Position numbers and translations under genes: made by a program. From Armatimonadota bacterium (GTDB taxonomy: Bacteria > Armatimonadota > Armatimonadia > Armatimonadales > Armatimonadaceae), in the NCBI GenBank assembly GCA_043754515.1, contig JAYUUO010000121.1, positions 1 through 39,786 on the forward strand: a stretch of 39,786 bases of DNA, given 5' to 3'. Below, in pieces: positions 2,310 to 24,469 of the stretch (the stretch's first letter is position 1; each line of letters opens with the position of its first letter). Below the pieces are notes generated by a model. The model worked only from the letters and a program-made list of their open reading frames with translations, was not told the origin of the DNA and searched no databases.

Positions 2310-3938
2310 ATGACACGCTCTCGCTTACACCCGTTTTTCGGCCTCTTTCTGCTAATCGCGGGATCGCGCGCTGCCCTCGCCGCCGACCCGCCGGTAGCAC
2401 CTGCCACCGCGCCACCTGCTTCGGCGGCACCGGTCGCCCCCACCCCGGCCACCCCGGTGGCCCCGGTTGTGGAAATCCCGGACTACGTGGGGGCGGTCTG
2501 GGAACCCGCCTCGCCGAAGAACTTTAAGCCGTCCAACCGTCCCTCCCCCGAACAGGCGATTGACCGAATCGTGATCCACGACATCGAAGGCTCGGCGATG
2601 TCGGCGGTGCGCTGGTTCCAGAACGATGTCGCGGAGGTATCGTCACACTATGTCGTGGACGGCAAGACCGGGTGCGTCTACCAGATGGTTAAAGAGCGCG
2701 ACATCGCCTGGCACGCGGGCGACCGCATCACCAACGCCCGTGCCGTCGGCATCGAGCACGAGGGGTTCGGCTACAAGCCGGGTTACTTCAACGGGGTCGA
2801 GTACGAGGCATCCGCGCGGCTCGTGCGCGACATCGCGTTGCGCTATAACATCCCCCGCGACCGCGCCCACATCATCGGGCATTTCGAGGTGCCGGACTCG
2901 GCCAATCCGGGTAAGTTCGGCGGGCGGGGTGGGCATACCGACCCCGGACCGTACTGGGACTGGGATTACTTGATGGCCCTGATCCGCAACGCGGCGACCC
3001 AGAGTTCGGGCTATTTGAGCGGCATCACTCTTCACCCTGGCGAGACTCGGGATCTCGCGTTCGCCCTCACCAACACCGGTGATGACGTATGGCTCGCCGA
3101 CCTCAAGGCGGCGGAAGACGCGCGGTTGCGGACAATAGGCCCGGTGTACCTCGGTGCCTACGCGACCGGGGGCGCGGCATGGGGGCCGGAAAGTGCTTTC
3201 TATGGGGAGGGCTGGGTCAGCACGCGCTTCGTCGCATCGTCCGCTACGGGCGACGTGCCTCCCGGCGCGTCGGGTACATTTTCGGTGCCGCTTCACACCC
3301 CGTTAGATGTGCTAGGGAACGTCACCGAGACGTTCCGCCTGTACAAGGTGCCGCCCGCCCCGCATCTGCCGGTGCCTTTCGGCCCGACTATTTCGGTAGC
3401 CGTAAGTATCGAGCCGTGGGAAGTGGTTGTGCCTCTCCCCCCCGCGCCCCCCGCCGGGTGGAATGCGAAAACGCTACCAGATAGCGCGGGGACGCCTGAC
3501 AGGGGAGCGCGGGTGTTCTGGCACAAGGGCGGGAAGGCGGGCGGTGTCGGGACAACAGCGAACGCGACGCGCTGGCAGACCGACCTGCCGCAACCTGGCT
3601 TGTGGGATGTTTACGCACGCTACCCGCAGGGGAAGGGCCGGACACAGGGCGCGACTTACCGGATTACCACGGCGACCGACGGCGTGCGGACGCGGACGCT
3701 GGATCAGCGGGGGAGCGGCGGGCGGTGGCAGTTCTTAGGTCGCTACCGGTTCGCCGTCGCGCCGCGGTCAGCGGAGCCCGGAGTTCGTCCCGGCAACGTA
3801 TTGCCGAAGGTACCGATGGCCCAGGGCGTAGTCGAACTGATACCGGGAGGGGGCGGCGTGACCGTGGCGGGCGACGTGTCTTTCATCGGCCCATACCCGG
3901 CGAGTTCTCCGCCGGGCGAACCCGTCCATCTCCCTTGA
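2310..3938 (+). CDS. Secreted N-acetylmuramoyl-L-alanine amidase (Amidase_2) with Ig-like and C-terminal golvesin-like domains
   Basis: Signal peptide, Pro/Ala linker, motifs IVIHDIEG, SSHY, AWHAG, GIEHEG, GHFEV and HTDPGPYWDW. The C-terminal WDVYARYP...LDQRGSGGRWQFLGRY pattern is golvesin-like. Confidence 0.88.
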   Translation: MTRSRLHPFFGLFLLIAGSRAALAADPPVAPATAPPASAAPVAPTPATPVAPVVEIPDYVGAVWEPASPKNFKPSNRPSPEQAIDRIVIHDIEGSAMSAVRWFQNDVAEVSSHYVVDGKTGCVYQMVKERDIAWHAGDRITNARAVGIEHEGFGYKPGYFNGVEYEASARLVRDIALRYNIPRDRAHIIGHFEVPDSANPGKFGGRGGHTDPGPYWDWDYLMALIRNAATQSSGYLSGITLHPGETRDLAFALTNTGDDVWLADLKAAEDARLRTIGPVYLGAYATGGAAWGPESAFYGEGWVSTRFVASSATGDVPPGASGTFSVPLHTPLDVLGNVTETFRLYKVPPAPHLPVPFGPTISVAVSIEPWEVVVPLPPAPPAGWNAKTLPDSAGTPDRGARVFWHKGGKAGGVGTTANATRWQTDLPQPGLWDVYARYPQGKGRTQGATYRITTATDGVRTRTLDQRGSGGRWQFLGRYRFAVAPRSAEPGVRPGNVLPKVPMAQGVVELIPGGGGVTVAGDVSFIGPYPASSPPGEPVHLP

Positions 3939-4552: not shown

Positions 4553-6538
4553 TCAGCCGCCCCAAAATGAGTACGGCGTCACCCCGAGATACAAGCCGAT
4601 CAGGTGCCACAGGCAACCTACCACCATCTGCCCCAGCACCAGTCCCAGGAAGAACGGCATCGCGGCGCGATACAGGCGCACGCCCCCGTAGCGCAGTATC
4701 AGCCCTTTGCAGATCCAGGCGATAAGGAGTGGCATCCAGACCAGGTTCATGCTCCAGGACGACGAAATAGCGTAGCCGATGGGGTGGAGCGGCCACCACG
4801 GCACCCGAATTCGTAGCACCATCAGGAGCACGCAGAATAGGAACCCGACCAGAATAGCGACTTGCCCGTACACACTCGGCGGCGTCGGCGCATGCATCCA
4901 GCCGCTCAGCCGGTTGTACATCTCCCAGGCGAACCCCGCCCCCTGGCCAAACTTCGCCTGCGTTCCATACGCGTACGCGCAGTGCAGAAACGCCCAGAAT
5001 GTTGCCAGGGTGCCGGTAATACCCGCGAGGATCAGGCACCAGAACATCGTTTTGCGGCTGGCCTTCAGGTCACTGACCGCCTTCTCCCCCTCTATCATTA
5101 TGGGCTGCGGGTGCGAGCGGTAGGCGCGGTTGAACCAGTAAAAGAACGAGAGTCCCGTGAGATCCCGCGCACCGAACGCGGCAGTGCCCGCGACCCGGGT
5201 CATCATGTGATCCGGCCCGCTGAAATGCAGGTCATGGACAGGCGGACCCAATTCGGCGCGTAGCCGGGTCACGGCGAGCGACAGCGCGAAGTAGATCGCG
5301 AACGCGGTCGCGGCGACCTGGGGAGACATTCCCGCCCAGACCATGAAGGCGACCAGCGCGCCGAACCCGGCGAGGCCGCCGAGTATCGCCGCCCGATAAG
5401 ACAGGCCTTCCGTCCGGTCATCCAACTCGGACGTCTCCCCAAAGGCCCGCTTGATCAACTCGCGGAAGTAGCCGCGCCCGTTCCAGAGCATAAATACCAG
5501 GATCGCCGCGTACCCGCCGAACGCCTGCTCGCGCAGGAACGGGAAGTCGGGCACGACGTCGAGCGCGAACTGACGTGACAGGATCAGTTGTGCCTTCCAG
5601 AAGAGGTAGAACGACCAGCAGGAAAACAGCAGGTCGAGCGGCAACAGATAGCCGAGACCGATCACGAACGGGTAGAACGAGTAGGTTGTGAATCCGACCG
5701 CGTTCCACGGGCGCACCGCCCAAATCCCCTGCCCCTCTATGTCGTGGTGTTGCAGATTGAGGGCCGGGACTGCCGGGTACAGGTAGTGCAACCCGTTGAT
5801 AATCTCGATCACCGCGCACAGCCCGAATCCCCACCAGAAAAGACCGCTCCGCCACAGTTTCGCTTCAGGGTCGGTCATCTGTAGGGGGATCTCGATCACG
5901 GGGAATGGTAGCCGCTCCCGCTCCTGCCAGCCGCGCCGAACCAGCACGTTCAGGCACTGCATGACCCAGAGCAGTAGCACAATAAATAGAGACCAGAGCG
6001 CGACCGGCTTGACCCATAGGCGGTAGTTTTCGGGCCGGTATAGATCGGCGTTCCCCTGGTAGTAGCCCGCGAGCGCGGTCTTGTCAGACACGAGCAGATC
6101 CGCGGGAAGGTACGCCCCGAAGTTCGTCAGGTAGCCGTTCGCGGCGTTGTCGAAGTGGTACGGGTGCCCGAGCATCTGGATCAGGCACGGGATCATGTCG
6201 TGTCCGGCGAGCGCGGAGCCGAGCGCGACCATAGAGTAGACGGTGAGGAGTTCGGCCTGTGACAGCGCGGCGCGTGGCACCACGCGTGCGACCAACGCGT
6301 TTACTAGTAGCACCGCGATCAGCGTGAAGAACGCGTTGGCGAACAGCGAGATGGTCGTGAAATACGGGCCGTGTCCCACCTTTTCAGCGAGGATCACCCA
6401 CCAGACATTGGCGATCGTGAGCGGTAGCCCAACGAGTAGAGTGCTCCACCAGCGTAATCGGTTCGGCGCGGCGCGGCGCGGGGGTGGCTTCGCGAGAATA
6501 CCAGCGTCGTTCGGGGCACGGTCCGTCTTTGAAACCAT
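4553..6538 (-). CDS. Polytopic membrane protein, DUF6785/DUF6784 type (possible transporter)
   Basis: 661 aa with many TM segments; motifs ELLTVY, WQERERLPFP, RLRAELG and WWPLHPIGY...KGLILRYGG...PFFLGLVLG. Confidence 0.75.
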   Translation of the reverse strand: MVSKTDRAPNDAGILAKPPPRRAAPNRLRWWSTLLVGLPLTIANVWWVILAEKVGHGPYFTTISLFANAFFTLIAVLLVNALVARVVPRAALSQAELLTVYSMVALGSALAGHDMIPCLIQMLGHPYHFDNAANGYLTNFGAYLPADLLVSDKTALAGYYQGNADLYRPENYRLWVKPVALWSLFIVLLLWVMQCLNVLVRRGWQERERLPFPVIEIPLQMTDPEAKLWRSGLFWWGFGLCAVIEIINGLHYLYPAVPALNLQHHDIEGQGIWAVRPWNAVGFTTYSFYPFVIGLGYLLPLDLLFSCWSFYLFWKAQLILSRQFALDVVPDFPFLREQAFGGYAAILVFMLWNGRGYFRELIKRAFGETSELDDRTEGLSYRAAILGGLAGFGALVAFMVWAGMSPQVAATAFAIYFALSLAVTRLRAELGPPVHDLHFSGPDHMMTRVAGTAAFGARDLTGLSFFYWFNRAYRSHPQPIMIEGEKAVSDLKASRKTMFWCLILAGITGTLATFWAFLHCAYAYGTQAKFGQGAGFAWEMYNRLSGWMHAPTPPSVYGQVAILVGFLFCVLLMVLRIRVPWWPLHPIGYAISSSWSMNLVWMPLLIAWICKGLILRYGGVRLYRAAMPFFLGLVLGQMVVGCLWHLIGLYLGVTPYSFWGG

Positions 6539-11727: not shown

Positions 11728-13920
11728 TCAGGGCGTGAGTGGATACAGGTTCGCGCGCGGAATCGCTTGCATCGTCTGCCCCGAGTACGACCAGTAGAGT
11801 TGGGCGGAGGCGACGCCCGTGGCATGGTAGTAGTCCATGGCGAGCGGCACCCGCTGTCCCGCGGTCAAGTGCACCGTCGTCACGCTCTGGTCAAGCCGTG
11901 GCGAATGAGCGGTCCAATCCTCGATTACGGTGGCCCCATTCACCCGGACACGCACCCCAGACGCGGTGACGGTATAGAAAGAATAGTCCCCGGTTACGGG
12001 TGCCTGCGCGAACCCTTCCCAGCGGACGGCGAAGTTGTTGTGCCCCAGCCCGCCGATGCCGGGAATCCCGGACTTGCCCCAGTTGAAAGCAACCCGCGAA
12101 TCTGTGCGCGTCCCGACGGACGTGCCGGTCAGCGCGGTACCCGAGTAGTAGGTGCCTTTCAAACCGGTTCCGGCCCCGACGGTGGCGGTATCGAGCCGGA
12201 GCACGGTCACGGAAGGCGACGGAACGGTGAGCGAAATACTGCCCGCGCTGGAAACCGGCACGTCGGTCAATTTTGTAATCGCCGTGTCCGTCGCGCTACC
12301 GCCGATACCAGCGAGCTGCCAGACGCGTGCGCTGGACGCGCCGCCGAAGTTCGCCACGTTGACCGTCACTGGCGTTGACCCCGAAGACTCTTTCGCGATG
12401 ACCACGATGCTGACCGCGCCGCCCGCGCTGTCCTGCGAGGCGAACGCCGACACAGTGTTCGGGTCGGGCGCGGCGGCGGAGACCGACGTATCACCGAAGC
12501 CGCTCTTGTTCCCGTCGTAGTTGCGGAACATCGAAATGGCTTTGTACGCGGGCGTCCCCGGATTCGGCGTCGTCCAGCGCGTCGCCAGATCAAGCCCTTC
12601 CCGGCCCAGAATGCCTAGAATATCCGCCTGCGTAGTCGCGCCGTTCATGTGCCCTTCCGCGCCCCAGTTGTACTCGGTCAAGCCGATCAGCGTGCCGGGA
12701 TAGTACTGAGCGACCCAGCCTTTGAGGCGCGGCGCGAGTTGAACGTAGTCGGCGATCCACGTCTCGTCTTTATAAATCGGATCCCACAGAGAGCGGGTCG
12801 AGCGGTTCCGCCGCGACTGCATGTCCGCCGAAACGTCGTTGCCAAACTCTCCCCCTTGCGGGTAGATATGCACGCTCAAAACGTCGAGCAGGCGTTTATT
12901 GTTGGTCTTGTCGTAGTCCGCATATTTCGAGAGGAGCCAGGGGATGTAATCGGCCTCGCCGTGCGTGCTGCGATCCGGCGCATGGTAGAAATCGTATCCG
13001 TGCGACGGCCCCCACTGCTGATCCCGCCCGGAATAGAAGTAGCCGCTCCAGCCCCACTCTTCGGGACCGACTATTTTCGCCGAAGGGTCAACGGATTTGA
13101 TCGCCTCGCCGTAGGTTCGGAACTTGTCCCACATCGCATCCATGGACGCTCCGACCGGCTGCACATCCCGGTGCGACCCGTGCCAGATGCTCGACTCGTT
13201 GTCCATAAGGTAGTAGCGAACACCACCGTTCGCGGCGGTGCCCCATTTATTCACGAGGTGCTGTACCCAGCCTCGTTGGAGCGCGACCGAGTTTTGCATG
13301 TTCGCAAGGTTAGGGTCATTGCCGGTGATAGGCTGGCCGGTAGATTTGTAGATGCCGTTACCGCCTCCGGGGTAGTAGGGGTCGAACGATTGTTGGTCCG
13401 GGTATTTCGAAGCGGGGAACGAGGCGAGTCGCCCGCGCGGGTCGTTTCCGTTGCCGACTTTCGCGACCCAATCAATCAGCGGGATGGTCAACATGCTGAG
13501 TGCCCCGCCCGCTTTGTTCACGGCGACGAAGGTATCGCTGCGCTCTCCGGGAGTCGCGCTATCGTCCGGAAAACTCTCGAAGAAGTAGTCATTGCCTTTA
13601 TTGTCGGCGTTGAGTTGCCAGTTGTAGCGGGTCGTATTATTGCCGCCGATACGAACCAGCGGGCAGTTCAGATCGCTGATCGCGCTTCCAGGATAGCAAA
13701 GCCCATAGATGAGCGGCGAGATAGGGTGCCGCCCCGCGTTCACATCCACGGATATCGTGACTGGGACGTTCGCGGCGAGAACTTTGCGCGTCCGACTAGT
13801 AACCACGGACGCGGTTTTACCGGTCTGCGCGCACGCAACACCAGCGAGTACATATAGTGTCAGCGACAGCGAGACGCCAACAAAGAAGTACGAACGAAAA
13901 TGGTACGACATTATCCCCAT
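11728..13920 (-). CDS. Secreted glycoside hydrolase family 44 (endoglucanase/xyloglucanase) with C-terminal PA14 domain
   Basis: HPISPLIYG, RIGGNNTTRYNW, MDNES (acid/base), GPEEWGW, HIYPQ and TEYNWG (nucleophile). PA14 motifs GLKGTYY and NNFAVRWEG. Start at 13920 or 13911. Confidence 0.92.
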   Translation of the reverse strand: MGIMSYHFRSYFFVGVSLSLTLYVLAGVACAQTGKTASVVTSRTRKVLAANVPVTISVDVNAGRHPISPLIYGLCYPGSAISDLNCPLVRIGGNNTTRYNWQLNADNKGNDYFFESFPDDSATPGERSDTFVAVNKAGGALSMLTIPLIDWVAKVGNGNDPRGRLASFPASKYPDQQSFDPYYPGGGNGIYKSTGQPITGNDPNLANMQNSVALQRGWVQHLVNKWGTAANGGVRYYLMDNESSIWHGSHRDVQPVGASMDAMWDKFRTYGEAIKSVDPSAKIVGPEEWGWSGYFYSGRDQQWGPSHGYDFYHAPDRSTHGEADYIPWLLSKYADYDKTNNKRLLDVLSVHIYPQGGEFGNDVSADMQSRRNRSTRSLWDPIYKDETWIADYVQLAPRLKGWVAQYYPGTLIGLTEYNWGAEGHMNGATTQADILGILGREGLDLATRWTTPNPGTPAYKAISMFRNYDGNKSGFGDTSVSAAAPDPNTVSAFASQDSAGGAVSIVVIAKESSGSTPVTVNVANFGGASSARVWQLAGIGGSATDTAITKLTDVPVSSAGSISLTVPSPSVTVLRLDTATVGAGTGLKGTYYSGTALTGTSVGTRTDSRVAFNWGKSGIPGIGGLGHNNFAVRWEGFAQAPVTGDYSFYTVTASGVRVRVNGATVIEDWTAHSPRLDQSVTTVHLTAGQRVPLAMDYYHATGVASAQLYWSYSGQTMQAIPRANLYPLTP

Positions 13921-14108
13921 CCTTTTAGAAACACAGGAGTGACTGCCCTTATTATCGGCACGGCATGGGCATTTTCTCACAGCGTGTGACTTCAGACCGT
14001 CGTCGACTGTTCCGCGAATGTCGCCGGCGGATACGTGGGCCAGTCCTTACTGATGCCGAGACCGAATACGCAGTCGTATGAACATCAATTCCATTCTCGT
14101 TCGGTTGA

Positions 14109-14282: not shown

Positions 14283-15289
14283 TAGCAAAATCAAAAATGA
14301 TTAATGTTTGTGTGCAATAGCCCATGCGTCCTTATTCTCTTGACCTACGGGAGCGGGTGATCCGCGCCTTACAAGGCGGCGCGAGGCAGAAAGCCGTCGC
14401 CGAACAGTTCGACGTATCGCTCTCCACCGTGCAACGCTTCTCCTATCAATACCGCGCGGAGGGACACCTGCGGAGCAAGCCGTCGCCGGGACGTCCCGCC
14501 AAGGTCACCCCGGCGCGGGAGACCGATCTCCTGGAACTCGCCACGGGCGAGAACGCTACATTAGTCAGCATCGCCCGGTCGTGGCGGGAGAAAACCGGCG
14601 AACACATCGCCGCCTCCACAATCCACTATGCCTTGCGGCGGCTCGGCTACACGCACAAAAAAAACACGGGACGCGGCGGAACGTGACGAGGGGAAGCGCG
14701 AGCGGTTCCGACTCGCTTTAGCCACGGTCGCGCCGGAGCGTCTGGTATTCCTGGACGAATGCGGCTTCTCTCTTGCGTTGTACTGGCTCTATGGGTGGGC
14801 GAAGAAGTCGGAGCGGTGTGCCGAGAAAGTCGCCTGCCAGCGCGGGGTCAACCGCTCGCTACTGGGGGCGATGTCTCTGACGGGGATGTGCGCCTTCGCG
14901 ACGAAGTTAGGCGACTTCAAGCGCGACGACTTCGGGGGGGGCTGACGGCGGAGTTGCTCCCCGTGCTCGGCGAGGGGTCGGTGATAGTTGCCGAGAAATG
15001 CTCAGCATTTTCGCGACTAGACAACGCCTGGATTCCTCATGGGGGGAACATCGCCGCGCTGGTGGAAGCGGCAGGCTGTTCGTTGCTGTACTTGCCGCCT
15101 TACTCGCCGGACTTCAACCCGATCGAACTGGCTTGGGGGTGGATTAAGGGGGAGGTACGCCGGATCTGCCCGAGGGATGACAAGACGCGAGAAGAGTCCA
15201 TCGGCGCGGCCATCGCCGCCTTGCTGGGCGAGTCCGCCCCAGCGTGGTTTAGGAACTGCAACATACTTCAATGATCAATGAATGTGCTA
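14283..15289 (+). mobile_element. IS630-family insertion sequence, degenerate
   Basis: Imperfect terminal IRs (left TAGCAAAATCAAAAATGATT; right, reverse-complemented, TAGCACATTCATTGATCATT), each flanked by TA. Exact ends are uncertain by 2 bp because both sit in TATA runs. Confidence 0.88.
14324..15274 (+). pseudogene. IS630 transposase split over three ORFs
   Basis: HTH start YSLDLRERVI; DDE motifs FLDECGF, LDNA and YLPPYSPDFNPIELAW. Frame breaks at A8 (14657-14664) and G8 (14934-14941), plus a 27-bp in-frame insertion. Confidence 0.85.
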
Positions 15290-15818: not shown

Positions 15819-17336
15819 TCACTCGCGCACGATTCGAAGACCGACATACGGGCTTTTGAAACCCGGCACGTTGCCGCCGCGCACCGTGACCCGTTGCGCC
15901 CGCGCGTCCAAGAACCAGCAACCGCCGCGAAGCACCTGCTCCGTCGCGTCCGGGTCACGCGCGACCGGATCCGCGGACGGGCTTTTCGCGTAGTAATCCG
16001 GTACGAACGCGTCCTCGCACCACTGCCACACATTCCCCGTCATGTCGTAGACCCCCCACGCGTTCGCGCGCCGGTTCGCGACCGGGTGCGTCCGGTTCTC
16101 GGCGTTCGCCGCGTACCACGCATATTCGTTCAGGTCGGCCTCGCGCACCGTGGAACGATCCTCGCCGCGCGGGTACTGTCCGTCGGAACCCGCGCGGCAC
16201 ACGTACTCCCACTCCGCCTCGGTCGGGAGCCGGTACCGCGCCTTGCCGCCCGAACGCGCGGTCAGTGCCTTACAAAACGCCCTGGCGTCGTTCCATGTCA
16301 CGGAGTCAACCGGCAAATCATCGCCGGGGAACGCGGACGGACTCACCCCCATTACCACCTTGTAGACCGCCTGCGTGACTGGGGTTTGCGAGATGAAAAA
16401 GGGACGAGTGATCCGGATGTCGCGGGCGGGTTGCTCGACGGCGTTCGTCGGGTTCCAGACGCCCGCCTTCGTCAGCGCATCCTTCTCAGCGTCCGTCGTA
16501 CCACGGACGAACGAACCGGCGGGGATCCGCACCCACCCCATACCCGCGAACTGCGCCTCGCCGAAATCGGGCACGGTCGCGGGATCCGAGTCGGGAAGCG
16601 TCTCCGCGTTGCCGGAGCGCAACCGCACGTCCGCAAACCAGACCGTGCCGGTCTCGCCGCCAAGCAGGAATGACGGCATCAGATTGCCCACGGTCGGGGC
16701 GTCGGCAACATTCGCGGCAGTGAAGGAGCAGACATACCGCTTCCACCGCGCACTGAGCGTGACGGTGGAACTTAATCCGATTCCGTGGTGATCGCCCGCG
16801 CCGACCTGCGCGTATACTGGGACCGAGCGCAACCTGTCGGCACGGGCGCGGAACGTCAGGGTGTACGTCTTGCCGTTCGCGAGCATTGGGAGACTCTGAT
16901 ATAACTGTACGTGCCAGTTCGTGCCGGTCACCTTTGTCACCGCGATACGCACCGCATCGCCGTCAACGCTCATCTCGCCCTTGCCGCCGTCGTACTGGCC
17001 GAAGTCCCACGCGCCCGGTGCCGTGGTCGGCTTGAGCAGATCGGGACCCGGCGGTTCGACCGGGGCTGGCTTCCCGGCTTCCGCCTTCTTCGCCTCTGCC
17101 GCTTCGTCGAACGCAGCGAAGGTGTGATTGTGCAGGGCGTAGTACAGACCACGGAAGTTACGCGCTCCCCCGCCGGCGGGCGCGACGTGGCAATAAGAAC
17201 ACGGCTTCTTCTCTGCCTTCGCGTATTTCGGCAGGGCGTTCGCAGCGCGACAAAGCCCCAGCGCGAGGAGTATCAGGACCGCGCCGTAGCAGACGATGGC
17301 GGCGCGGCGGGACGGGATAACGGCTTCGTGTATCAC
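15819..17336 (-). CDS. Secreted fusion of monohaem cytochrome c, CBM4/9-like module and FGE/SUMF1-family domain
   Basis: Signal peptide; CSYCH; WHVQLYQ...GKTYTLTFRARA...GTVWFADVRL; PVTQAVY, YRLPTEAEWEY, NAWGVYDMTGNVWQWC and RGGCW. Confidence 0.88.
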   Translation of the reverse strand: MIHEAVIPSRRAAIVCYGAVLILLALGLCRAANALPKYAKAEKKPCSYCHVAPAGGGARNFRGLYYALHNHTFAAFDEAAEAKKAEAGKPAPVEPPGPDLLKPTTAPGAWDFGQYDGGKGEMSVDGDAVRIAVTKVTGTNWHVQLYQSLPMLANGKTYTLTFRARADRLRSVPVYAQVGAGDHHGIGLSSTVTLSARWKRYVCSFTAANVADAPTVGNLMPSFLLGGETGTVWFADVRLRSGNAETLPDSDPATVPDFGEAQFAGMGWVRIPAGSFVRGTTDAEKDALTKAGVWNPTNAVEQPARDIRITRPFFISQTPVTQAVYKVVMGVSPSAFPGDDLPVDSVTWNDARAFCKALTARSGGKARYRLPTEAEWEYVCRAGSDGQYPRGEDRSTVREADLNEYAWYAANAENRTHPVANRRANAWGVYDMTGNVWQWCEDAFVPDYYAKSPSADPVARDPDATEQVLRGGCWFLDARAQRVTVRGGNVPGFKSPYVGLRIVRE

Positions 17337-17367
17337 GGGTTTCGGCTTTCGGACGCTCTGTCCAATG

Positions 17368-19155
17368 CTACGCGGCCTTCTTAATATACGTCAGCGGTTT
17401 GCGGTTGTTACGCCCGGCCTGATCTTTTTTGGCGATCCCGGCGAGATACAGCGCGGTCGCGTACACGTCGCCGTGGTTCGGGATCAACGCCATATACTCG
17501 TCGTACTTCGCCTGTTTGAACGCGGCGTGCTTCGGGTCATCCCAGCCGACAGGCCCTTCACCCGTTATCGCGTTGAAGTCCGGGTGCGACTTGCCGTCCG
17601 GCAGGAGCGGAACCGCCAGCATCGTTTTCGAGCCGACACCGCCCCACTGCCGGTCGCCCTGCACGGTGCCGCCCAGAAATGCCGCCGAGGTGACTTTCCA
17701 GTGCTGGGAGATGTCCTGTCCGTCAACCATCTTCTGCTTGTCAGACTCCGGCATCGTGGATTTCAGGATGCTGTCTACGTCCCCGTGGATCGTTCGCCCG
17801 AACTCGGACGTCAGCACGATGGTCGTATGTTCCCAGATCGGCTTGCCTGTGCGGCGGTGCGGCGTCTTCTTAAGCAGTTCGACAAGTGCCGTGAGCGGCT
17901 CCCAGAGTTGCCGCTTGAGCATGTCGGTCTGGTCAGGCTGGCCGCGCGGCGTCTTGCGGTCATTCTCCCATAGATCCTTGCGACCATGGTGCGAGTCGAA
18001 GCTACGTATGTCACGCGTCTCGATCCACGCCACGCAGGACAGATCCTGGCGTAGCAGCTCGTATGTCATCATCGCTTGGACGTTCGTGCTCGGACAGAAC
18101 TTGGTGCGCGCTTTATTCCCGTTCACGCTCTGGTACGTGATCAGCTCGTCGCCCGGCTTGACGTTAAACTTCGCCTTGAGTTCGGCGTCGTAGAACAGCG
18201 TGGAGAGCATATTGCGGTCCAGCTTCTTGCCCGCAGCCGTCAGGTTTCCGTAAATCTCGCGCGCCGAGTTGTACGCCTTGATCGTCTCGATGCTGCTGTC
18301 GCGGCGCAGATGGACGTGCGAATCATCCAGAAACCGCTCGATCTGCCGGTTCACCACGTCGCTCGAATTGCTGTGCATACGGAGCAGGAAGTCGCGCAGG
18401 TTCGCCGGGGTGCTGGCGTAAATCGTGTGCGCGTGCGCGGGGCCGAGGCCCGCGTAGTAGCCTTTGCGCCCCGTGTACTGCACCTCGTTCAGCTCGCCGT
18501 CCGATAGCCACCAGTGCCACGAGACGTTCGGGAGCACGTGCCCCTGGCCGTAGGTTTGCGCGAACGCCTGCGTTACGGAACGCTCGTCATTTTCGCGCTC
18601 GCCCTGAAGGTGCAGGTCATACGACCCCATGTGCGCCTTGAGGCGGTCGCCAGAGTGGAACTCGCCGGTGTGCATGGACGACAGAACGGCCATGTCCGCG
18701 AACAGACTCTTGCCCCCTTCGGCAAGATACCCGTGCCGTATGTTACCGGTCTTCGTGATGTAGTGGTCTGGTTGCCCCCACTTCAGGACGCGGTACCGCT
18801 CGTTGCTGATCTGGGCGGCGGGGAGACGCGTGACGACGTTGTTCGCGGTATCGAGCGGGCTGAACATGTCGTAGCTCTCCCACCCGCCTTCCACGAACCA
18901 GTAGATCAGGTAGTGCGGATCGGCGGCTTCCTGGACTTTCGCGGCGATGCTGTCGGCGAAGGCGCGGCCCTCGCGCGGGTCGCCGTGGCGCATCAGATAG
19001 TTCAGAAAGTCCGCCGCGCCCAGCGCGAGTCCGGTCTGCGCACCGCGCCGCAGAAAGGAGCGGCGGGACAGAACGCGCGGGTCAACCGTCGGCTTCTCCA
19101 GCGGACTGTCGTATTGGGGCGGGCCCATTTCGGGGCAGGGTTCATGCTGGCTCAT
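17368..19155 (-). CDS. Tat-exported DUF1501-family protein
   Basis: Twin-arginine SRRSFLR; GGWESYDMFSP, FDSH, TTIVLTSEFGRT and SQHW motifs. ATGA overlap with the upstream gene. Confidence 0.8.
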   Translation of the reverse strand: MSQHEPCPEMGPPQYDSPLEKPTVDPRVLSRRSFLRRGAQTGLALGAADFLNYLMRHGDPREGRAFADSIAAKVQEAADPHYLIYWFVEGGWESYDMFSPLDTANNVVTRLPAAQISNERYRVLKWGQPDHYITKTGNIRHGYLAEGGKSLFADMAVLSSMHTGEFHSGDRLKAHMGSYDLHLQGERENDERSVTQAFAQTYGQGHVLPNVSWHWWLSDGELNEVQYTGRKGYYAGLGPAHAHTIYASTPANLRDFLLRMHSNSSDVVNRQIERFLDDSHVHLRRDSSIETIKAYNSAREIYGNLTAAGKKLDRNMLSTLFYDAELKAKFNVKPGDELITYQSVNGNKARTKFCPSTNVQAMMTYELLRQDLSCVAWIETRDIRSFDSHHGRKDLWENDRKTPRGQPDQTDMLKRQLWEPLTALVELLKKTPHRRTGKPIWEHTTIVLTSEFGRTIHGDVDSILKSTMPESDKQKMVDGQDISQHWKVTSAAFLGGTVQGDRQWGGVGSKTMLAVPLLPDGKSHPDFNAITGEGPVGWDDPKHAAFKQAKYDEYMALIPNHGDVYATALYLAGIAKKDQAGRNNRKPLTYIKKAA

Positions 19156-22100
19156 CGGGTTTCTTTCGTGGGCGCGGTCCGCGATTCGGCGGGGCGTGAG
19201 ATGCGGCCGTGGAACCGCGTTAGTAGCGCGAGCCGCCGCGCCCGCGCCTGGGCGGGCAACTCTTTCGTTGGCGCGGTGACCGCGCTATTCAAATATTCCG
19301 GCGAAAGCACCAATGCCTTGATCAGCGGACGGATCGCGTAGTGAGTGCTTGCGGTCGTCGCCCAGAGGCGGCGGTACAGCCCGCGCTCGTCGGCGTCGTA
19401 GCGCAAGTCGCGCCCGAAGTACCAGATGAAATGCGTCTGGAGCATCGCGCGGATGAACCGCTCCTTGTTCTGCGCCTGCGTCGCGAACGCTTGCAGTCCC
19501 GCGCCCTTGAACGGGTACGAGGCGACGACGGCCTGGTCGGACGCGTCCAGCATCATGCCGGTGTCGTCGTGCATACGGAACACGCCGCTGTCGTCCCAGT
19601 GGCGACGCTGATACGCAAGCGGGGTCAGCACCTTATGGCACGAGTAGCAGACCGATTTCGGGTCGGTAGTCGCGGACGCCGTCAGGCCGTTGCGCACTTT
19701 CAGCACCTCATCCGGCACCTCGAAGACGTAGCCAAGAAACTTCTCGCACACCTGCGCCGGGTAGTTGAAGTGCGGTAGACCCGGCTTGCCTTCGATAAAG
19801 CCCTTCATGGTCAGTACGCCCGTCTTACCGTAGAACGCCGGGCGCGCCTTTCGCTTGCCGCCCGTGTCCACCGTATAGTCCGCCGTCAGAATCTCCTTGA
19901 ATGGGCGGTCGTGCGTAGCGATATACGTCCACAGCCGCGCCGGTTCGTCCTGTTCGGGCGTGCCGTGCGACTCGATATACAGCCGGGTTCGCCGGAAGTA
20001 GAAGTCCTGAAACTCCGGCAGTGTCAGGTATTTGTCTACCAGCGCGGACAGCGGCTCGCCGCGATCCACCCGAGCCAGTTCGTCCGCGCTGGGCGTCCGC
20101 GCCAGAATATCCTGCGCGATCTTGACCAGTTGTAAGCGGCGACGCTGTTTCGGGTCGGTCGTGGTCATCAGCGAGCGCGGGCGGGTGAACAGGAAGTCCG
20201 GGTGCGCGAGCAACGCGCGGGTTAGTCCTTCCCACGCGGCTTGTTGCGCGGTCAATGCGGGCGCGACGAACGCCAGGCGCGGCGCGTCGGGGTTTCCAAG
20301 CACGACGCGCGGCCCGCCGATCTGCTCCCAGTGGTAGTGGAGCGGCGACTGCTGGATATTGAACGAGCTAGACGCGTCCACCACCACCTGTGCGCCGACA
20401 TGCGCGTGGTAGGGGTAGACGATGCGGGCGATCGGCGACGACGCCCGCGCATGTACCACTACCGGCACGTTGGTCTCGTTGTCCACCTGACCCGGGAATA
20501 TCAAGCCGACCTTGTAGAACCGCGCCGGATCGAAGCCGCTTTTTCCCACCGATAAGGGCGTGTACAGCAGGCTCAGGTTCTCTACCTTCGCGCCCTTGTC
20601 GTCGGTGTCCTGCAAAATGTCGGGACCGACCGTGTTGTACGGGTTAAACGCACCGACCTGGAACTTGCCCCACTTGTCGCGTCCGGTCGCGGTCGCGCCG
20701 CGCAGGGTCAGCACCGGCGCGGCTCCGGTTACCGGTGCGTTAAACGCGGTCGGGAGAACGGGCGCGGGCGCGGCGGTGTCAACCGGGGCGAGACGAACCG
20801 CGTCCGCGACGACGCGTTTGTGTGTGTTCTCGTTGCGCACCTCGACGCCGTCACCCGGCGCACCGAACTGAAACGCGGTGCCGAGGTCCCAGGAGGCCAG
20901 CGAATCAGCGGTTTCGTCAACGGCGAACGTCGCCTCGTTACGAGGCGGTAGCGGCTGGGCAGGCGGAACGGCGAGGCGACTCCGTTTGTCCCCTGACACA
21001 ACTTCGACCAGTACATTATCCGCTCCACTGGTCGGTGCGCCACGGCGGCGGTTTTTAGTACCAGGCGCGGGTGTCGTCGGCTCCGGGAATCGTCGCCATG
21101 TCAGGGCGATCTCGTAGGTCCCGGATTTCGTGACAGGGAGCGGGAATGTTACCCGCGAGCGCCCCTTGTTCTCGTTCGCGTCCTCGTAGGAGGTGAAGTT
21201 GTCCTCACCCCGGATGTGCCAAGCCCCTTCGGCGCGGATGGCGGCATCGGTGATCGGGACCACCGTCTCATCGCGCGCGGGGAGCGGCCCGCGGAGCATG
21301 ACCGAGGAGACCGAAACGTTCCCGTGCGTCCCCTCATTCGTAACGGTGACCGTCTGACCAGCGTCGCCCGCGACGAGCGCGAACGGCTGTTTAAGCGTCA
21401 CGGACGCCGTACGCGGCGCGGCTTTTTCGTCGGGCTTAAAAGTGTCTTTGCTCTGATCCACGAACTCCGAAACCAGTGCGCGCGGGTTTGCCGAGACCCG
21501 GACCTCCACATCACGCGCCGTTGTCATGCCTTTATCATCACGCAAAGTGAGCGCGAACCGCAGGTCTTGCGGCGCGGTTAACGCGAGCTGATTCTGGGCG
21601 CGGTACACGTTTTGCAGGAAGCCGAGTGCCTCGCGCTGTTCTGCTGGGGACGGGTCGCGGAACAACATCCGGTTATACAGATTTCGGATCGCGGTCACGG
21701 TGGCGGGGTTCGTCTTCCCAGTCGAGACGGGGAGCGCGGCGGGAAACCCGGCGAAGGGGCCCGTGCGGGATAGGTACGCCCGCGAGGCGATGTCGCGCCC
21801 GAGCAAGTCAACCCCGGTCAGATATTCGGGCGTCGCACGGGTGCTCTCGTCGAACCGCTTGATGTAGTCCGCGCCGCCGAACATGTACGCGTTTTCGGCG
21901 AACAGGTCTCGCCCTTCGCGCTTCCAGTCGTCGCCGAAGATCGCGTGAACCTTGCCGCGCAACTGCTGGTACGACAGGAACGTGTTGTCCAGCCCCTCCG
22001 GCTGACGGGTACCGGCATACGAGGCAAGCAGATGCGCGGGGAACTGCTCGTCCGTGTGCGTCCCGCTCCCCTGACGCTTCTTCTGCAAGTCTTCGGCGAA

Positions 22101-22616
22101 CCGGGTGAACAACGCGACTTCAGCGGGTGTGAGCGGCGTCATGTCCACCGGCGGCATCTTGATCGTTTTGTCGGTCGTGGACACGCGCTCGATGATGGAC
22201 GCGTGGTTGTCGGGATCGAAGTGATCCTCCCCGAGCATCTTCAGGAACGCGGATTTGCTGTCTTTGAGTAGCAAAAACTGGGACGCGTTTTTCTGCCCGT
22301 GACACATAGTGCAGCCGCTACCGGAGCGGGTCATTATGGGCCAGAGTTCGCGGTCGAACCGCGCCTGGAACGCGGCGGAGTCGTTGGGGGCGAGTCCGGC
22401 AGCGGCCACGGATCGGGCGTTCGCGTCGCCCGTCTTCGCGAGTTTGTCGCGTTTGGGTTGCGCGGCTCGCGACGCCGAGAGCGTGATCACGCAGACGAGG
22501 GCGGCGGTCAGCGCCCAGCCGGCGACGGTGGAGCCGTCAACACGCTGACTCCCGCCCCCGAGATCGGCGCGGGTATCAATAGCGGCATTTTTCGGCGGGC
22601 AGTTGTTTCGACGCAT
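19152..22616 (-). CDS. Large di-haem cytochrome c, Planctomycete-type DUF1587/1595/1592/1588/1585-like, with inserted PKD and golvesin-like domains
   Basis: N-terminal hydrophobic segment; CTMCH...KMPP; LSYQQLRGKVHAIFG; LYNRMLFRDP...ALLAHPDFLF; GVLT...CYSCH; C-terminal LIKALVLSPEY. Confidence 0.75.
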   Translation of the reverse strand: MRRNNCPPKNAAIDTRADLGGGSQRVDGSTVAGWALTAALVCVITLSASRAAQPKRDKLAKTGDANARSVAAAGLAPNDSAAFQARFDRELWPIMTRSGSGCTMCHGQKNASQFLLLKDSKSAFLKMLGEDHFDPDNHASIIERVSTTDKTIKMPPVDMTPLTPAEVALFTRFAEDLQKKRQGSGTHTDEQFPAHLLASYAGTRQPEGLDNTFLSYQQLRGKVHAIFGDDWKREGRDLFAENAYMFGGADYIKRFDESTRATPEYLTGVDLLGRDIASRAYLSRTGPFAGFPAALPVSTGKTNPATVTAIRNLYNRMLFRDPSPAEQREALGFLQNVYRAQNQLALTAPQDLRFALTLRDDKGMTTARDVEVRVSANPRALVSEFVDQSKDTFKPDEKAAPRTASVTLKQPFALVAGDAGQTVTVTNEGTHGNVSVSSVMLRGPLPARDETVVPITDAAIRAEGAWHIRGEDNFTSYEDANENKGRSRVTFPLPVTKSGTYEIALTWRRFPEPTTPAPGTKNRRRGAPTSGADNVLVEVVSGDKRSRLAVPPAQPLPPRNEATFAVDETADSLASWDLGTAFQFGAPGDGVEVRNENTHKRVVADAVRLAPVDTAAPAPVLPTAFNAPVTGAAPVLTLRGATATGRDKWGKFQVGAFNPYNTVGPDILQDTDDKGAKVENLSLLYTPLSVGKSGFDPARFYKVGLIFPGQVDNETNVPVVVHARASSPIARIVYPYHAHVGAQVVVDASSSFNIQQSPLHYHWEQIGGPRVVLGNPDAPRLAFVAPALTAQQAAWEGLTRALLAHPDFLFTRPRSLMTTTDPKQRRRLQLVKIAQDILARTPSADELARVDRGEPLSALVDKYLTLPEFQDFYFRRTRLYIESHGTPEQDEPARLWTYIATHDRPFKEILTADYTVDTGGKRKARPAFYGKTGVLTMKGFIEGKPGLPHFNYPAQVCEKFLGYVFEVPDEVLKVRNGLTASATTDPKSVCYSCHKVLTPLAYQRRHWDDSGVFRMHDDTGMMLDASDQAVVASYPFKGAGLQAFATQAQNKERFIRAMLQTHFIWYFGRDLRYDADERGLYRRLWATTASTHYAIRPLIKALVLSPEYLNSAVTAPTKELPAQARARRLALLTRFHGRISRPAESRTAPTKETR

Positions 22617-22782: not shown

Positions 22783-23226
22783 CTAGCTACCGGGCGGATC
22801 GACGGGAGCGATTTTGATCGGGACGTACTTTTTCGTGTTGTCATCAAGCACTAGGAAGTGACCGCCTGGGCTACTCAGAGCATCTTTCAACTTGTTCTGA
22901 AACGCCTTCTCATGCTCTTCGTCCTCATCATCCTTCTTGAACGTTTTCACATACCACGCTGTATAAAAGCAGTTTTTGTGGCTACCGGATAGATATATCC
23001 GGTGCCGTGAGGCTTTCCCGAACCTGTAATGGCGTATATGGTTGAGATCCGAGGGCAAGCCTTTCAGACTTCCAGAGTGGGCATCGAACGGTCCGGGATT
23101 CTTCTCGTTCGCGTCGTTCGCGAAGTTCACCAAACGCTTCTCGCACATTTGGTCCCTGTTGTCGCCAGTCCGGGCTAAATCGGCGAGTGCTTTCAGGGTA
23201 ATGTCGTTAACCCGCAGTGAGCACAT
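22783..23226 (-). CDS. Hypothetical protein, possible RelE/ParE-superfamily toxin
   Basis: Start at ATG 23226 with GGGGAG SD, overlapping the upstream stop. The pattern IRHYRFG-RHRIYL-YTAWYVKTFKK resembles the RelE beta-sheet. Confidence 0.5.
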   Translation of the reverse strand: MCSLRVNDITLKALADLARTGDNRDQMCEKRLVNFANDANEKNPGPFDAHSGSLKGLPSDLNHIRHYRFGKASRHRIYLSGSHKNCFYTAWYVKTFKKDDEDEEHEKAFQNKLKDALSSPGGHFLVLDDNTKKYVPIKIAPVDPPGS

Positions 23227-23587
23227 GGTCAGGCTCCCCTGCACGGAACGCGTCGCGCAGACCCTCGATTAGTTCCTTGTCGTCCGAGTTGAACTCATTC
23301 TCGAGCGCGTCTATGCCTACCATGGCAGTGTTGAACTGGGACAGACGACGCAGGAAATTGAACGCCCCGTTTATCTGAGAATAAGTCAGCCCGGGATACT
23401 CACGCATGATGTCGTCGTAGTCCACCAAGCCGTTGATAGCATCAATAAACTGATAGACGTAAACGGGTGTGCACCCCTCCCGCTCCAGAACAGGCAGGGA
23501 CTTCAGATCGCTATCAATCTTGACAAACCCGCCACTATAACTGGCCGCCTCATTGAACATGGGTATGATCATTAATGCTTGTTGCAT
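23207..23587 (-). CDS. DUF433-domain protein (putative antitoxin) with acidic C-terminal tail
   Basis: VKIDSDLKSLPVL...PVYVYQFIDAI...YDDIMREYPGLTYSQINGAFNF matches the DUF433 pattern. Confidence 0.7.
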   Translation of the reverse strand: MQQALMIIPMFNEAASYSGGFVKIDSDLKSLPVLEREGCTPVYVYQFIDAINGLVDYDDIMREYPGLTYSQINGAFNFLRRLSQFNTAMVGIDALENEFNSDDKELIEGLRDAFRAGEPDHVLTAG

Positions 23588-23600
23588 GCGAGCGTGTTCG

Positions 23601-23828
23601 TTAAATGTGAATAAGTAATTCGTCCGCGAGACTCACATTGTTACGTCTGCCTGAATACAGGGTTTGAGTCTGATTCATCTGGGACACCAAAAAGTAATTG
23701 CTGTTCTGTTCGGGCAACTCATGCTGAACAGCGTTGAACGGCCCTGCGGAGTGCTGAAAGCCCCTCTGCCTAGATCGGGGCGGTTCGGCGGCCGATTGGC
23801 GATTGATTGTCTCCGCGATTTTACTCAT
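23601..23828 (-). CDS. Small hypothetical protein (75 aa)
   Basis: ATG overlaps the upstream stop (ATGAGTAA); the ORF fills the gap in a co-directional run. No recognisable motif. Confidence 0.4.
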   Translation of the reverse strand: MSKIAETINRQSAAEPPRSRQRGFQHSAGPFNAVQHELPEQNSNYFLVSQMNQTQTLYSGRRNNVSLADELLIHI

Positions 23829-24198
23829 CCTTACTTCTACGCTCTTCCTCATCTGCCCGACCAGAACTGTTACCATGCATCTCGCTGAACGCGTCATTTA
23901 TGGTCTGCGCATCGAAATCGTTGAGAGATTTTAACCCATCACCATGTAAACGCTTCAACAGTCGGTATCTCGGGAACCAGTGCTCCATCATCTTCGTGAA
24001 GGACACATGATTCACCACTATTTTGTTCTCGAACTTGATCCTGTTCGCTGCCACCCCGTCGTCAACCGCACCGAAGTACAACGAAACATCCGTTGAGTTA
24101 ACGACCACATGTGTATAGTTCGCATAAGACGTCTTAGCGTCGAGTAAGTCAAGGTTCAGACGGGACTCGTCGGCATCATCTTTTGTTTCTTCAGCCAT
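23821..24198 (-). CDS. DUF3467-like protein
   Basis: SYANYTHVVVNSTDVSLYFG...KIVVNHVSFTKMM...LHG pattern; acidic ends; start at ATG 24198. Confidence 0.55.
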   Translation of the reverse strand: MAEETKDDADESRLNLDLLDAKTSYANYTHVVVNSTDVSLYFGAVDDGVAANRIKFENKIVVNHVSFTKMMEHWFPRYRLLKRLHGDGLKSLNDFDAQTINDAFSEMHGNSSGRADEEERRSKDE

Positions 24199-24469
24199 TT
24201 TTCTACCCTTCACCCGCGTACCCCAGAAATCTTCGCGTCACACATTAACACGGCCTCGTATCGCTTCCTGAGTTAGTGAACCCCAGGCGGCTACCGAACT
24301 GAGTGTCTCCCCCGGCACCGTTTTCGTGGAGATATCTTATCATAACTATCACCCGTCAGAGCCAATTTTTTCGGAGGCGAGTCGATATGTGGTTGGGATT
24401 AAATCAGAATAGGTGGTTATCGGCTTTCCACGCCGCGCGACGCACGCGCGGCGCGATACAATAACGAAT

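Follow-up and report, generated by a model that had tools for sequence, protein, structure and literature searches.

Co-inheritance of an exported dihaem protein and a divergent DUF1501 protein, with an optional FGE-fold partner, in Armatimonadaceae and other bacteria

Our subject is a cluster of three genes, here called A, B and C, on contig JAYUUO010000121.1 of an Armatimonadota bacterium from the Armatimonadaceae (GCA_043754515.1); the window is the whole stretch that was analysed, positions 1-39,786 of the forward strand. All three genes are read from the minus strand. Gene A (19152..22616) encodes an exported dihaem protein of PSCyt/PSD type (1154 aa) with a beta-sandwich insert. Gene B (17368..19155) encodes a divergent DUF1501 protein (595 aa) with a twin-arginine translocation (Tat) motif and a predicted alkaline-phosphatase/sulfatase fold. 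Gene C (15819..17336) encodes an exported protein (505 aa) that joins a small haem domain, a carbohydrate-binding module (CBM) of type CBM4/9 and a non-catalytic domain with the fold of the formylglycine-generating enzyme (FGE). A and B overlap in an ATGA, 31 bases separate B from C, and the trio holds three CxxCH sites, at residues 102 and 990 of A and residue 46 of C. A first interpretation made from the letters alone (the sequence-only reading) had described this layout, the three haem sites and the export of all three products, and each of these points was confirmed; for export, B has an RRxFL motif and A and C start with hydrophobic segments (hydropathy 2.05 and 2.63). The gene order and motifs exceed chance, because they recur in relatives with 35-70% identity, the closest of which are Armatimonadaceae. 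The host genome holds cytochrome c assembly genes, and with CxxCH motifs in exported proteins and maturation genes in the same genome, A and C classify by sequence as c-type cytochromes. It has one copy each of A and B, and elsewhere four canonical DUF1501 genes and one DUF1552 gene.

A and B form a conserved unit that is nearly always single-copy and is co-inherited across at least six phyla, even where the two genes are unlinked. We found relatives of B at 47 loci in Armatimonadota, Abditibacteriota, Verrucomicrobiota, Planctomycetota, Sumerlaeota, Myxococcota and unclassified genomes, with a frameshifted metagenome-assembled genome labelled Actinomycetota as one further source. A lies upstream of B at 33 of the 47 loci, sometimes with unrelated genes in between, and 13 of the remaining 14 genomes carry exactly one A elsewhere; at six of these 14 loci the upstream sequence is shorter than 150 bases, so that they say nothing about separation. 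At one locus (L011, in our own numbering) the genes are about 1.8 Mb apart on a single closed chromosome. In our judgement A and B very probably function together. A functional link among the three genes had been proposed before, and it gains support from the co-inheritance of A and B and from the occurrence of C only with A or B in the groups sampled. The trio as a conserved unit did not survive the same comparison: C directly follows B at only 9 of the 47 loci (one of the nine is frameshifted throughout, and 12 of the 47 have less than 1.5 kb downstream of B), and the obligate unit is the pair.

The B family is tight and isolated. At 50% clustering it has four near-full-length representatives, after which matches to other full-length proteins drop to E 1e-32 or worse, and in a quick tree without bootstrap (39 B rows and 8 canonical DUF1501 outgroups) it forms one long-branch clade apart from the outgroups. 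Its distribution is patchy: 32 of 351 Armatimonadota genomes have it, as do 6 of 201 genomes in the order of the genome with L012 (one copy being broken), and the genus of the window has three further genomes, all without it. The genes found between A and B at L025, L026, L027, L033 and L047 are unrelated to the pair and include Uma2 nucleases, a transposase-like gene, DUF6678 and an ankyrin protein, the last near A-B at only one of the 47 loci. Directly 5' of A, four Chthonomonadales-type loci encode a protein of 1000-1300 aa (L008, 2-3013; L027, 907-4437; L036, 2652-6527; L037, 2683-6558), which had no Pfam match at the three of these loci where it was scanned.

The assignment of B to DUF1501 (PF07394) is marginal by Pfam, with 30.7 bits against a cut-off of 27 and 25.2 bits in a six-frame search. 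It is much clearer by profile-profile alignment, which gave 98.6% for DUF1501 and 7.5% for DUF1552 (31 members), and in the genome search the DUF1552 / HXXSHH profile (PF07586) did not match B. The twin-arginine motif (R31-L35; 19051..19065, minus strand) occurs in 129 of 131 B homologues, and the hydrophobic stretch of the leader is weak (best 17-residue mean hydropathy 0.81). Residues 1-60 (19000-19155, minus strand) make up a long N-terminal extension, in which a cysteine is kept in most non-myxobacterial homologues; a conserved Asp-Phe-Leu and a Gly beyond the twin arginines are unusual for a cleaved signal. The predicted model of B (predicted local distance difference test, pLDDT, 88.9; predicted template modelling score, pTM, 0.91) suggests an alkaline-phosphatase/sulfatase fold. 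It matches 50 entries of that superfamily with Z 14.7-18.9 (Foldseek E 4.6e-5), LtaS, EptA and BcsG among them, and the best match is 7PTH (Z 18.9, root-mean-square deviation 4.4, 273 aligned). In a sequence search of the PDB the B profile had only chance-level matches (E of at least 0.73), B had no Sulfatase Pfam match, and neither B nor a homologue was found in the ESM Atlas.

E89, H167, S168, R171, H175, E379, R381, R384, D387, H389, E451 and H485 are invariant in 132 of 132 B rows, and seven of them (E89, H167, E379, D387, H389, E451 and H485; 17701..18891, minus strand) are candidate metal ligands, a role proposed from topology and from general knowledge of alkaline phosphatase and sulfatase active sites. 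The helix 167-177 (18625..18657, minus strand) follows the second core strand and would put His167 where the nucleophile normally sits; Arg171 and Gly177 then fall at +4 and +10, which is the spacing of the sulfatase signature. In the 31 canonical DUF1501 proteins checked, H167, D387, H389 and H485 match throughout and E451 is Glu in 30 and Asp in one. As far as these alignments go, five core residues are thus family-wide in DUF1501, and E89, R171 and H175 are specific to the B lineage. When the canonical DUF1501 profile was aligned to 16 sulfatases (91.5%), the corresponding His fell beside the catalytic Cys. The type I sulfatase motif Cys/Ser-x-Pro-x-Arg is replaced in the B family by His-Ser-Gly-x-Arg, and the mature part of B has only two cysteines, neither at the signature position.

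Such a site could also serve a hydrolase or a phospho- or sulfo-group transferase working through phospho-His167 or Ser168, in which case B would be a distant analogue of LtaS, EptA and BcsG that decorates or trims a surface polysaccharide, and A a scaffold or redox-sensing regulator. The fold is one of hydrolases and transferases, with those three enzymes among its matches; B keeps the acidic residue after strand 1 and the Arg at +4, both mostly absent from canonical DUF1501 proteins; and S168 is invariant. Additionally, polysaccharide-synthesis genes directly follow B in four of the seven Myxococcota loci, and DUF1501-DUF1800 pairs accompany bacterial chitin synthases (PMC5122149). However, this account leaves an obligate partner with an invariant haem unexplained, no membrane domain or lipid-donor partner recurs, and the four myxobacterial loci are close kin, while the other three have no polysaccharide context. 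We consider it somewhat unlikely. The genes after A-B at those four related loci are Wzc-like, UDP-sugar dehydrogenase or epimerase genes (L038, 4071-7296; L039, 3590-5206; L040, 6565-9869; L041, 11807-18569).

The predicted model of protein A (mean pLDDT 89.4, pTM 0.86) runs from a class I cytochrome domain through a helical segment and a long insert rich in beta structure to a helical core at the C-terminus, which carries the second haem motif. When the whole model was used in fold searches, no clear match emerged (Foldseek returned nothing at E<=0.001; best Z 7.1); the helical core was barely probed, so we do not propose a novel fold. Haem motif 1 (CxxCH 102-106; 22299..22313, minus strand) lies in a PSCyt1-like class I cytochrome domain, which profile-profile alignment matched at 92.7% to the N-terminal cytochrome of the group III proteins (PSCyt3/PSD4/PSD2; DUF1588/1592/1585). 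H106 is kept in 84 of 90 rows and M154, the likely distal ligand of this haem, in 87 of 90. The C-terminal core (794-1110; 19287..20237, minus strand) is the equivalent of PSD4-PSCyt3-PSD2, as its alignment with 27 group III proteins runs over its full length (98.5%, E 1.7e-15, 305 columns); its first helices also match the PSCyt2 N-terminus locally (90.9%, 88 columns). Within the core, haem motif 2 (CxxCH 990-994; 19635..19649, minus strand) and H949, the candidate distal ligand of haem 2, are invariant in all 84 rows that have a residue at these columns. The segment that precedes the insert (189-341) matched neither group III nor PSCyt2, with 0.7% for the PSD3/PSD5-type segment.

These relationships are nearly invisible to Pfam. 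The matches to A itself are all sub-threshold (Golvesin_C 28.6, PKD 19.6, PSCyt3 16.8), and among 30 A members there was no match to PSD4 at E<=0.05 and none to PSD4, PSD3 or PSD5 in the scan. PSCyt3 appeared sub-threshold in 18 of the 30, PSCyt2 and PSD1 in 11 and 4, and a full PSCyt2 domain with PSD1 was not found. The earlier description of A as DUF1592-like therefore stands on profile-profile alignment and fails on Pfam. He et al. 2017 (PMC5615132) gave a pairing rule in which PSCyt3 stands beside DUF1552 and PSCyt2 beside DUF1501. The sequence-only reading had pointed out that a DUF1592-type protein is here paired with DUF1501, and the end-to-end alignment of A with group III together with the family assignment of B bears this out. 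The cross pairing does go against the rule, but it is not unique to this lineage, as weak-score cases exist in other Myxococcota DUF1501 pairs.

The insert of A (about residues 352-784; 20265..21563, minus strand) consists of beta-sandwiches like Golvesin_C and the xanthan lyase C-terminus, with a PKD-like domain. Across the 30 members Golvesin_C was seen in 25, PKD in 22 and CBM60 in 5, and the insert of A resembles the C-terminal domains of xanthan lyase 6F2P (E 2.8e-7). Five Myxococcota A proteins have a single CBM60-like module in the same slot, above the Pfam cut-off in four of them. On the sequence evidence the slot is interchangeable, taking two different carbohydrate-module-like inserts in one place, and the proposal that A and C both contain folds of this kind is supported. 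An amidase elsewhere in the window (2310-3938, plus strand) bears an above-cut-off Golvesin_C, the module family of the insert.

The pair might instead be a haem-linked metalloenzyme with a non-carbohydrate substrate, such as a small anion, a metal or a protein, and the beta-sandwiches might be calcium- or protein-binding spacers. GOLD, PPC and collagen-binding domains, all at equal Z, are among the top structural matches to the insert, no sugar-pathway neighbours are conserved, and every C member seen outside the Armatimonadaceae has no CBM. Against this stand the above-cut-off CBM60 in four of five myxobacterial A proteins, the above-cut-off CBM4/9 in C, and the fact that CBMs are recurrent add-ons of the PSCyt families (PMC5615132, PMC3542564). 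We regard this explanation as fairly unlikely, and as less probable than an oxidoreductase acting on a glycan.

In gene C the haem motif (CxxCH 46-50; 17187..17201, minus strand) belongs to a small mobile domain, which is also found at the start of two unrelated exported proteins from the same genome. These sister proteins (G000:C48:8895-9254 and G000:C163:13836-14516) had no informative Pfam match, and we take the motif to resemble the N-terminal haem motif of Cyc2-type proteins. The CBM4/9 domain (109-208; 16713..17012, minus strand) scores 37.1 against a cut-off of 25.9, and its closest solved relative is the laminarinase CBM4 1GUI (E 4e-9), whose aligned Trp residues are sugar clamps; C keeps one of them and has the second replaced. 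The FGE-fold domain (267-504; 15825..16538, minus strand; FGE-sulfatase score 155) has lost the two copper-binding cysteines, which are absent in the alignment to Streptomyces FGE (6MUJ, 2Q17) and in all 17 C-group rows. The group is set apart by its scores (333-431 versus at most 239 bits) and by a shared C-terminal motif, its monophyly is weakly supported (63 in the Shimodaira-Hasegawa-like approximate likelihood ratio test, SH-aLRT), and the N-terminal modules vary freely among its members. A search for longer C relatives was uninformative, returning multi-repeat FGE proteins. At L003 the FGE gene 3' of B, with 27% identity, is a paralogue that falls outside the C group, and it was excluded from the count.

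Since an FGE-fold gene adjoins a sulfatase-fold gene, one suggestion is that C is a formylglycine-generating maturase that activates B, and a maturation complex was among the options of the sequence-only reading. The FGE reaction requires both cysteines as well as a Cys/Ser-x-Pro-x-Arg target (bioRxiv 10.1101/2021.05.21.445229). The cysteine pair is absent from every C member, and B offers a His at the signature and no Cys or Ser target. We therefore reject formylglycine maturation by C, which we hold to be very improbable. Cysteine-less FGE folds are protein-docking modules in PorK and Tsi3 (PMC12421860; bioRxiv 10.1101/2021.05.21.445229), and we count these precedents in favor of a docking role for C.

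C is optional and yet specific, since in the three sampled groups it was never found without A or B. Of the 46 genomes that carry B, 14 had a match at E<1e-80 to a profile built from eight C domains. Among the 32 genomes of the window's family, 10 carry both A and C and nine of those ten also carry B, and the other 22 have none of the three; the genome with A and C and no B is an 89%-complete assembly in which A lies at a contig end. Six genomes of one Armatimonas-type genus carry C unlinked from A-B, and five of these C proteins keep the haem, a weak CBM4/9 and the FGE domain, while one is without the haem. In wider samples C turned up in 6 genomes out of 351 and in 2 out of 201, each time alongside B; there is overlap between these samples and the family set, one of the two hits is the genome on which its sample was centred, and only 7 to 13 candidates were scored per genome. 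No FGE-type C was found in the seven Myxococcota genomes carrying B. This pattern could also mean that A-B is a unit with which C is never in contact, C being a separate periplasmic ligand-binding protein for the same pathway. C is missing from 32 of the 46 B genomes and unlinked in the six Armatimonas-type genomes, and its variable N-terminal modules and weak monophyly would fit such an arrangement. However, linked C genes sit directly 3' of B, and the B proteins in question fall in three separate parts of the B tree. Together with the absence of C from sampled genomes that have neither A nor B, this shows a functional link and does not settle contact. Overall we find the arrangement improbable.

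The GH44 gene (11728-13980, minus strand), to which the operon had been linked as a neighbour, is not adjacent, as about 1.8 kb including an IS630 remnant separates it from gene C. GH44 and five other flanking open reading frames (ORFs) had no match in the 47 related loci and were rejected as parts of the system. The GH44 protein has a PA14 domain at its C-terminus and scores 335 bits to the EpsB model, far under the cut-off. The IS630-family transposase fragments lie at 14324-15274 (plus strand), with HTH and DDE in separate ORFs. On the other side, 5' of A, are three low-GC ORFs (GC 52-59%; 22783-24213, minus strand), one of which has a weak DUF3467 match; an overlapping pair among them has no Pfam match and presumably, by eye, resembles a small toxin-antitoxin pair. 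A DUF6785/DUF6784 membrane gene (4553-6538, minus strand) lies about 9 kb from the operon, and membrane proteins of similar size occur near L033 (16722-18728), L034 and L035. Scans for promoters and terminators returned about as many matches as chance predicts (3 versus 2.6 and 11 versus 10.6).

The reading we favor, with a probability of about 0.4, is that A-B works in the periplasm as an oxidoreductase made of a metalloenzyme and a cytochrome, whose substrate is an anionic sugar or glycan; C would be an accessory to it, either for docking or as an electron shuttle. B would be exported folded by Tat with its metals aboard, and A and C would take the Sec route, with their haem supplied by the genome's own Ccm-type system. 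The sulfatase-like fold of B would hold a two-metal site, with D387, H389 and H485 forming one metal site and E89, H167 and E451 the second, and with His in place of the usual nucleophile. The anionic group of the substrate might be bound by R171, R381 and R384, and the interchangeable beta-sandwich insert of A would capture the glycan. Electrons could then pass to the invariant haem 2, on to haem 1 and to a periplasmic carrier, which in the Armatimonadaceae could be the haem of C itself. The ligand bound in the groove of the FGE fold in C may be a fixed one, namely part of the A-B surface, or else the substrate or product.

Several points weigh against this oxidoreductase reading, which is drawn from sequences and predicted models. 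The register that puts H167 at the nucleophile position can only be inferred, because the alignment of B itself to the 16 sulfatases is not significant (6%, E 0.006) and places the signature helix elsewhere; a one-sequence run gave the His-on-Cys register at E 0.086, and the invariant S168 beside H167 could be the nucleophile instead. Haem motif 1 is missing in one myxobacterial homologue of A (L029). The insert matches known structures only weakly (best Z 7.1) and with no preference for sugar binders, and the sandwiches of A in the window are under the Pfam cut-offs. The haem and CBM of C are absent outside the Armatimonadaceae, and the CBM4/9 of the six unlinked Armatimonas C proteins is sub-threshold at 15-20 bits. 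No carbohydrate-active enzyme, transporter or respiratory neighbour recurs across the loci. Additionally, the genomes carrying these genes are kin, so the counts are patterns and not independent statistics.

A bolder version would make A-B-C a three-subunit periplasmic glycan oxidoreductase of a new chemical class, in which a sulfatase fold turned redox is wired to haems and a cysteine-less FGE-fold subunit is docked permanently, bringing an extra haem and a glycan module. We think this unlikely; if it were true, the ancient partnership of FGE and sulfatase would survive in a new role. Redox chemistry in B would by itself be a new role for the alkaline-phosphatase fold, for which we know of no precedent.

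PSCyt/DUF1501 pairs are abundant in planctomycetes and verrucomicrobia, with up to 109 PSCyt2 matches in one genome, and the papers we found assign no function to them. The A-B lineage offers a tractable case. It is nearly single-copy, it exists in a compact two-gene form in the cultured myxobacterium Hyalangium versicolor H56D21 (L042), and it has defined invariant candidate ligands and a swappable substrate-binding slot, all of which make knockout, mutagenesis and glycan-array tests practical.

Published work on related systems anticipates a part of this picture. Kamneva et al. 2012 (PMC3542564) described DUF1501 proteins with PSCyt cytochromes bearing CBMs and proposed electron transfer to proteins or sugars, and He et al. 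2017 (PMC5615132) proposed carbohydrate metabolism for PSCyt systems. The carbohydrate-redox idea in the sequence-only reading was thus not new. The A-B lineage and its FGE-fold partner were not found in the accessible text of these two papers, and no account of the lineage was found in the literature searched, which leaves most subscription journals outside. Compared with the group III and DUF1552 pairs of PMC5615132, the N-terminal cytochrome and C-terminal core of A align end to end, and the CBM add-ons, the two-gene layout and the Tat-type partner are the same. The differences are that A falls below all Pfam cut-offs for the group III domains, that its partner B is of DUF1501 and not DUF1552 type, and that A is nearly always present in one copy per genome, whereas up to 30 PSD4 matches occur. 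The PSCyt1/PSCyt2/PSD1 (DUF1549/1553) and DUF1501 modules of the PVC superphylum (PMC3542564) share with our locus the combination of a DUF1501 enzyme bearing a Tat motif and a neighbouring exported cytochrome to which carbohydrate-binding parts are added, as well as the five-residue His/Asp/Glu core of B. In contrast to them, B is a separate long-branch clade with E89, R171 and H175 specific to its lineage, A matches PSCyt2 over only 88 columns, and the third gene is FGE-fold where theirs are PPC, Big_2 or WD40 partners. The lineage bridges both published pairing rules.

Three further comparisons place the individual proteins. Other Myxococcota DUF1501 pairs (L153, L158/L187, L190, L194) show the same cross pairing, with a partner that weakly matches the A core, the group III C-terminus and the PSCyt2 N-terminus, but their DUF1501 proteins are far from B in the tree. 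The alkaline phosphatase superfamily (type I sulfatases, NPP/ENPP, LtaS, EptA, BcsG) shares the predicted fold of B at Z 14.7-18.9, and sulfatase aspartates line up with two acidic candidate ligands of B, the one that follows strand 1 and E451; B differs in the His at the inferred nucleophile position, in an identity of only 7-14% and in its obligate cytochrome partner. The non-catalytic FGE-fold proteins (PorK/GldK, Tsi3, PvdO and the Treponema variable protein) have, like C, an FGE fold without the two cysteines. C differs from them in a C-terminal motif of its own and, within the Armatimonadaceae, in its fusion to haem and CBM4/9 domains, and it reaches the cut-off of none of the named NCBIfam models. 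The general pair is already published. What is new here is a cross-paired lineage, nearly single-copy, in which A and B are tightly co-inherited, some active-site residues are specific to the lineage, the binding slot can be swapped and an FGE-fold protein is a dedicated partner.

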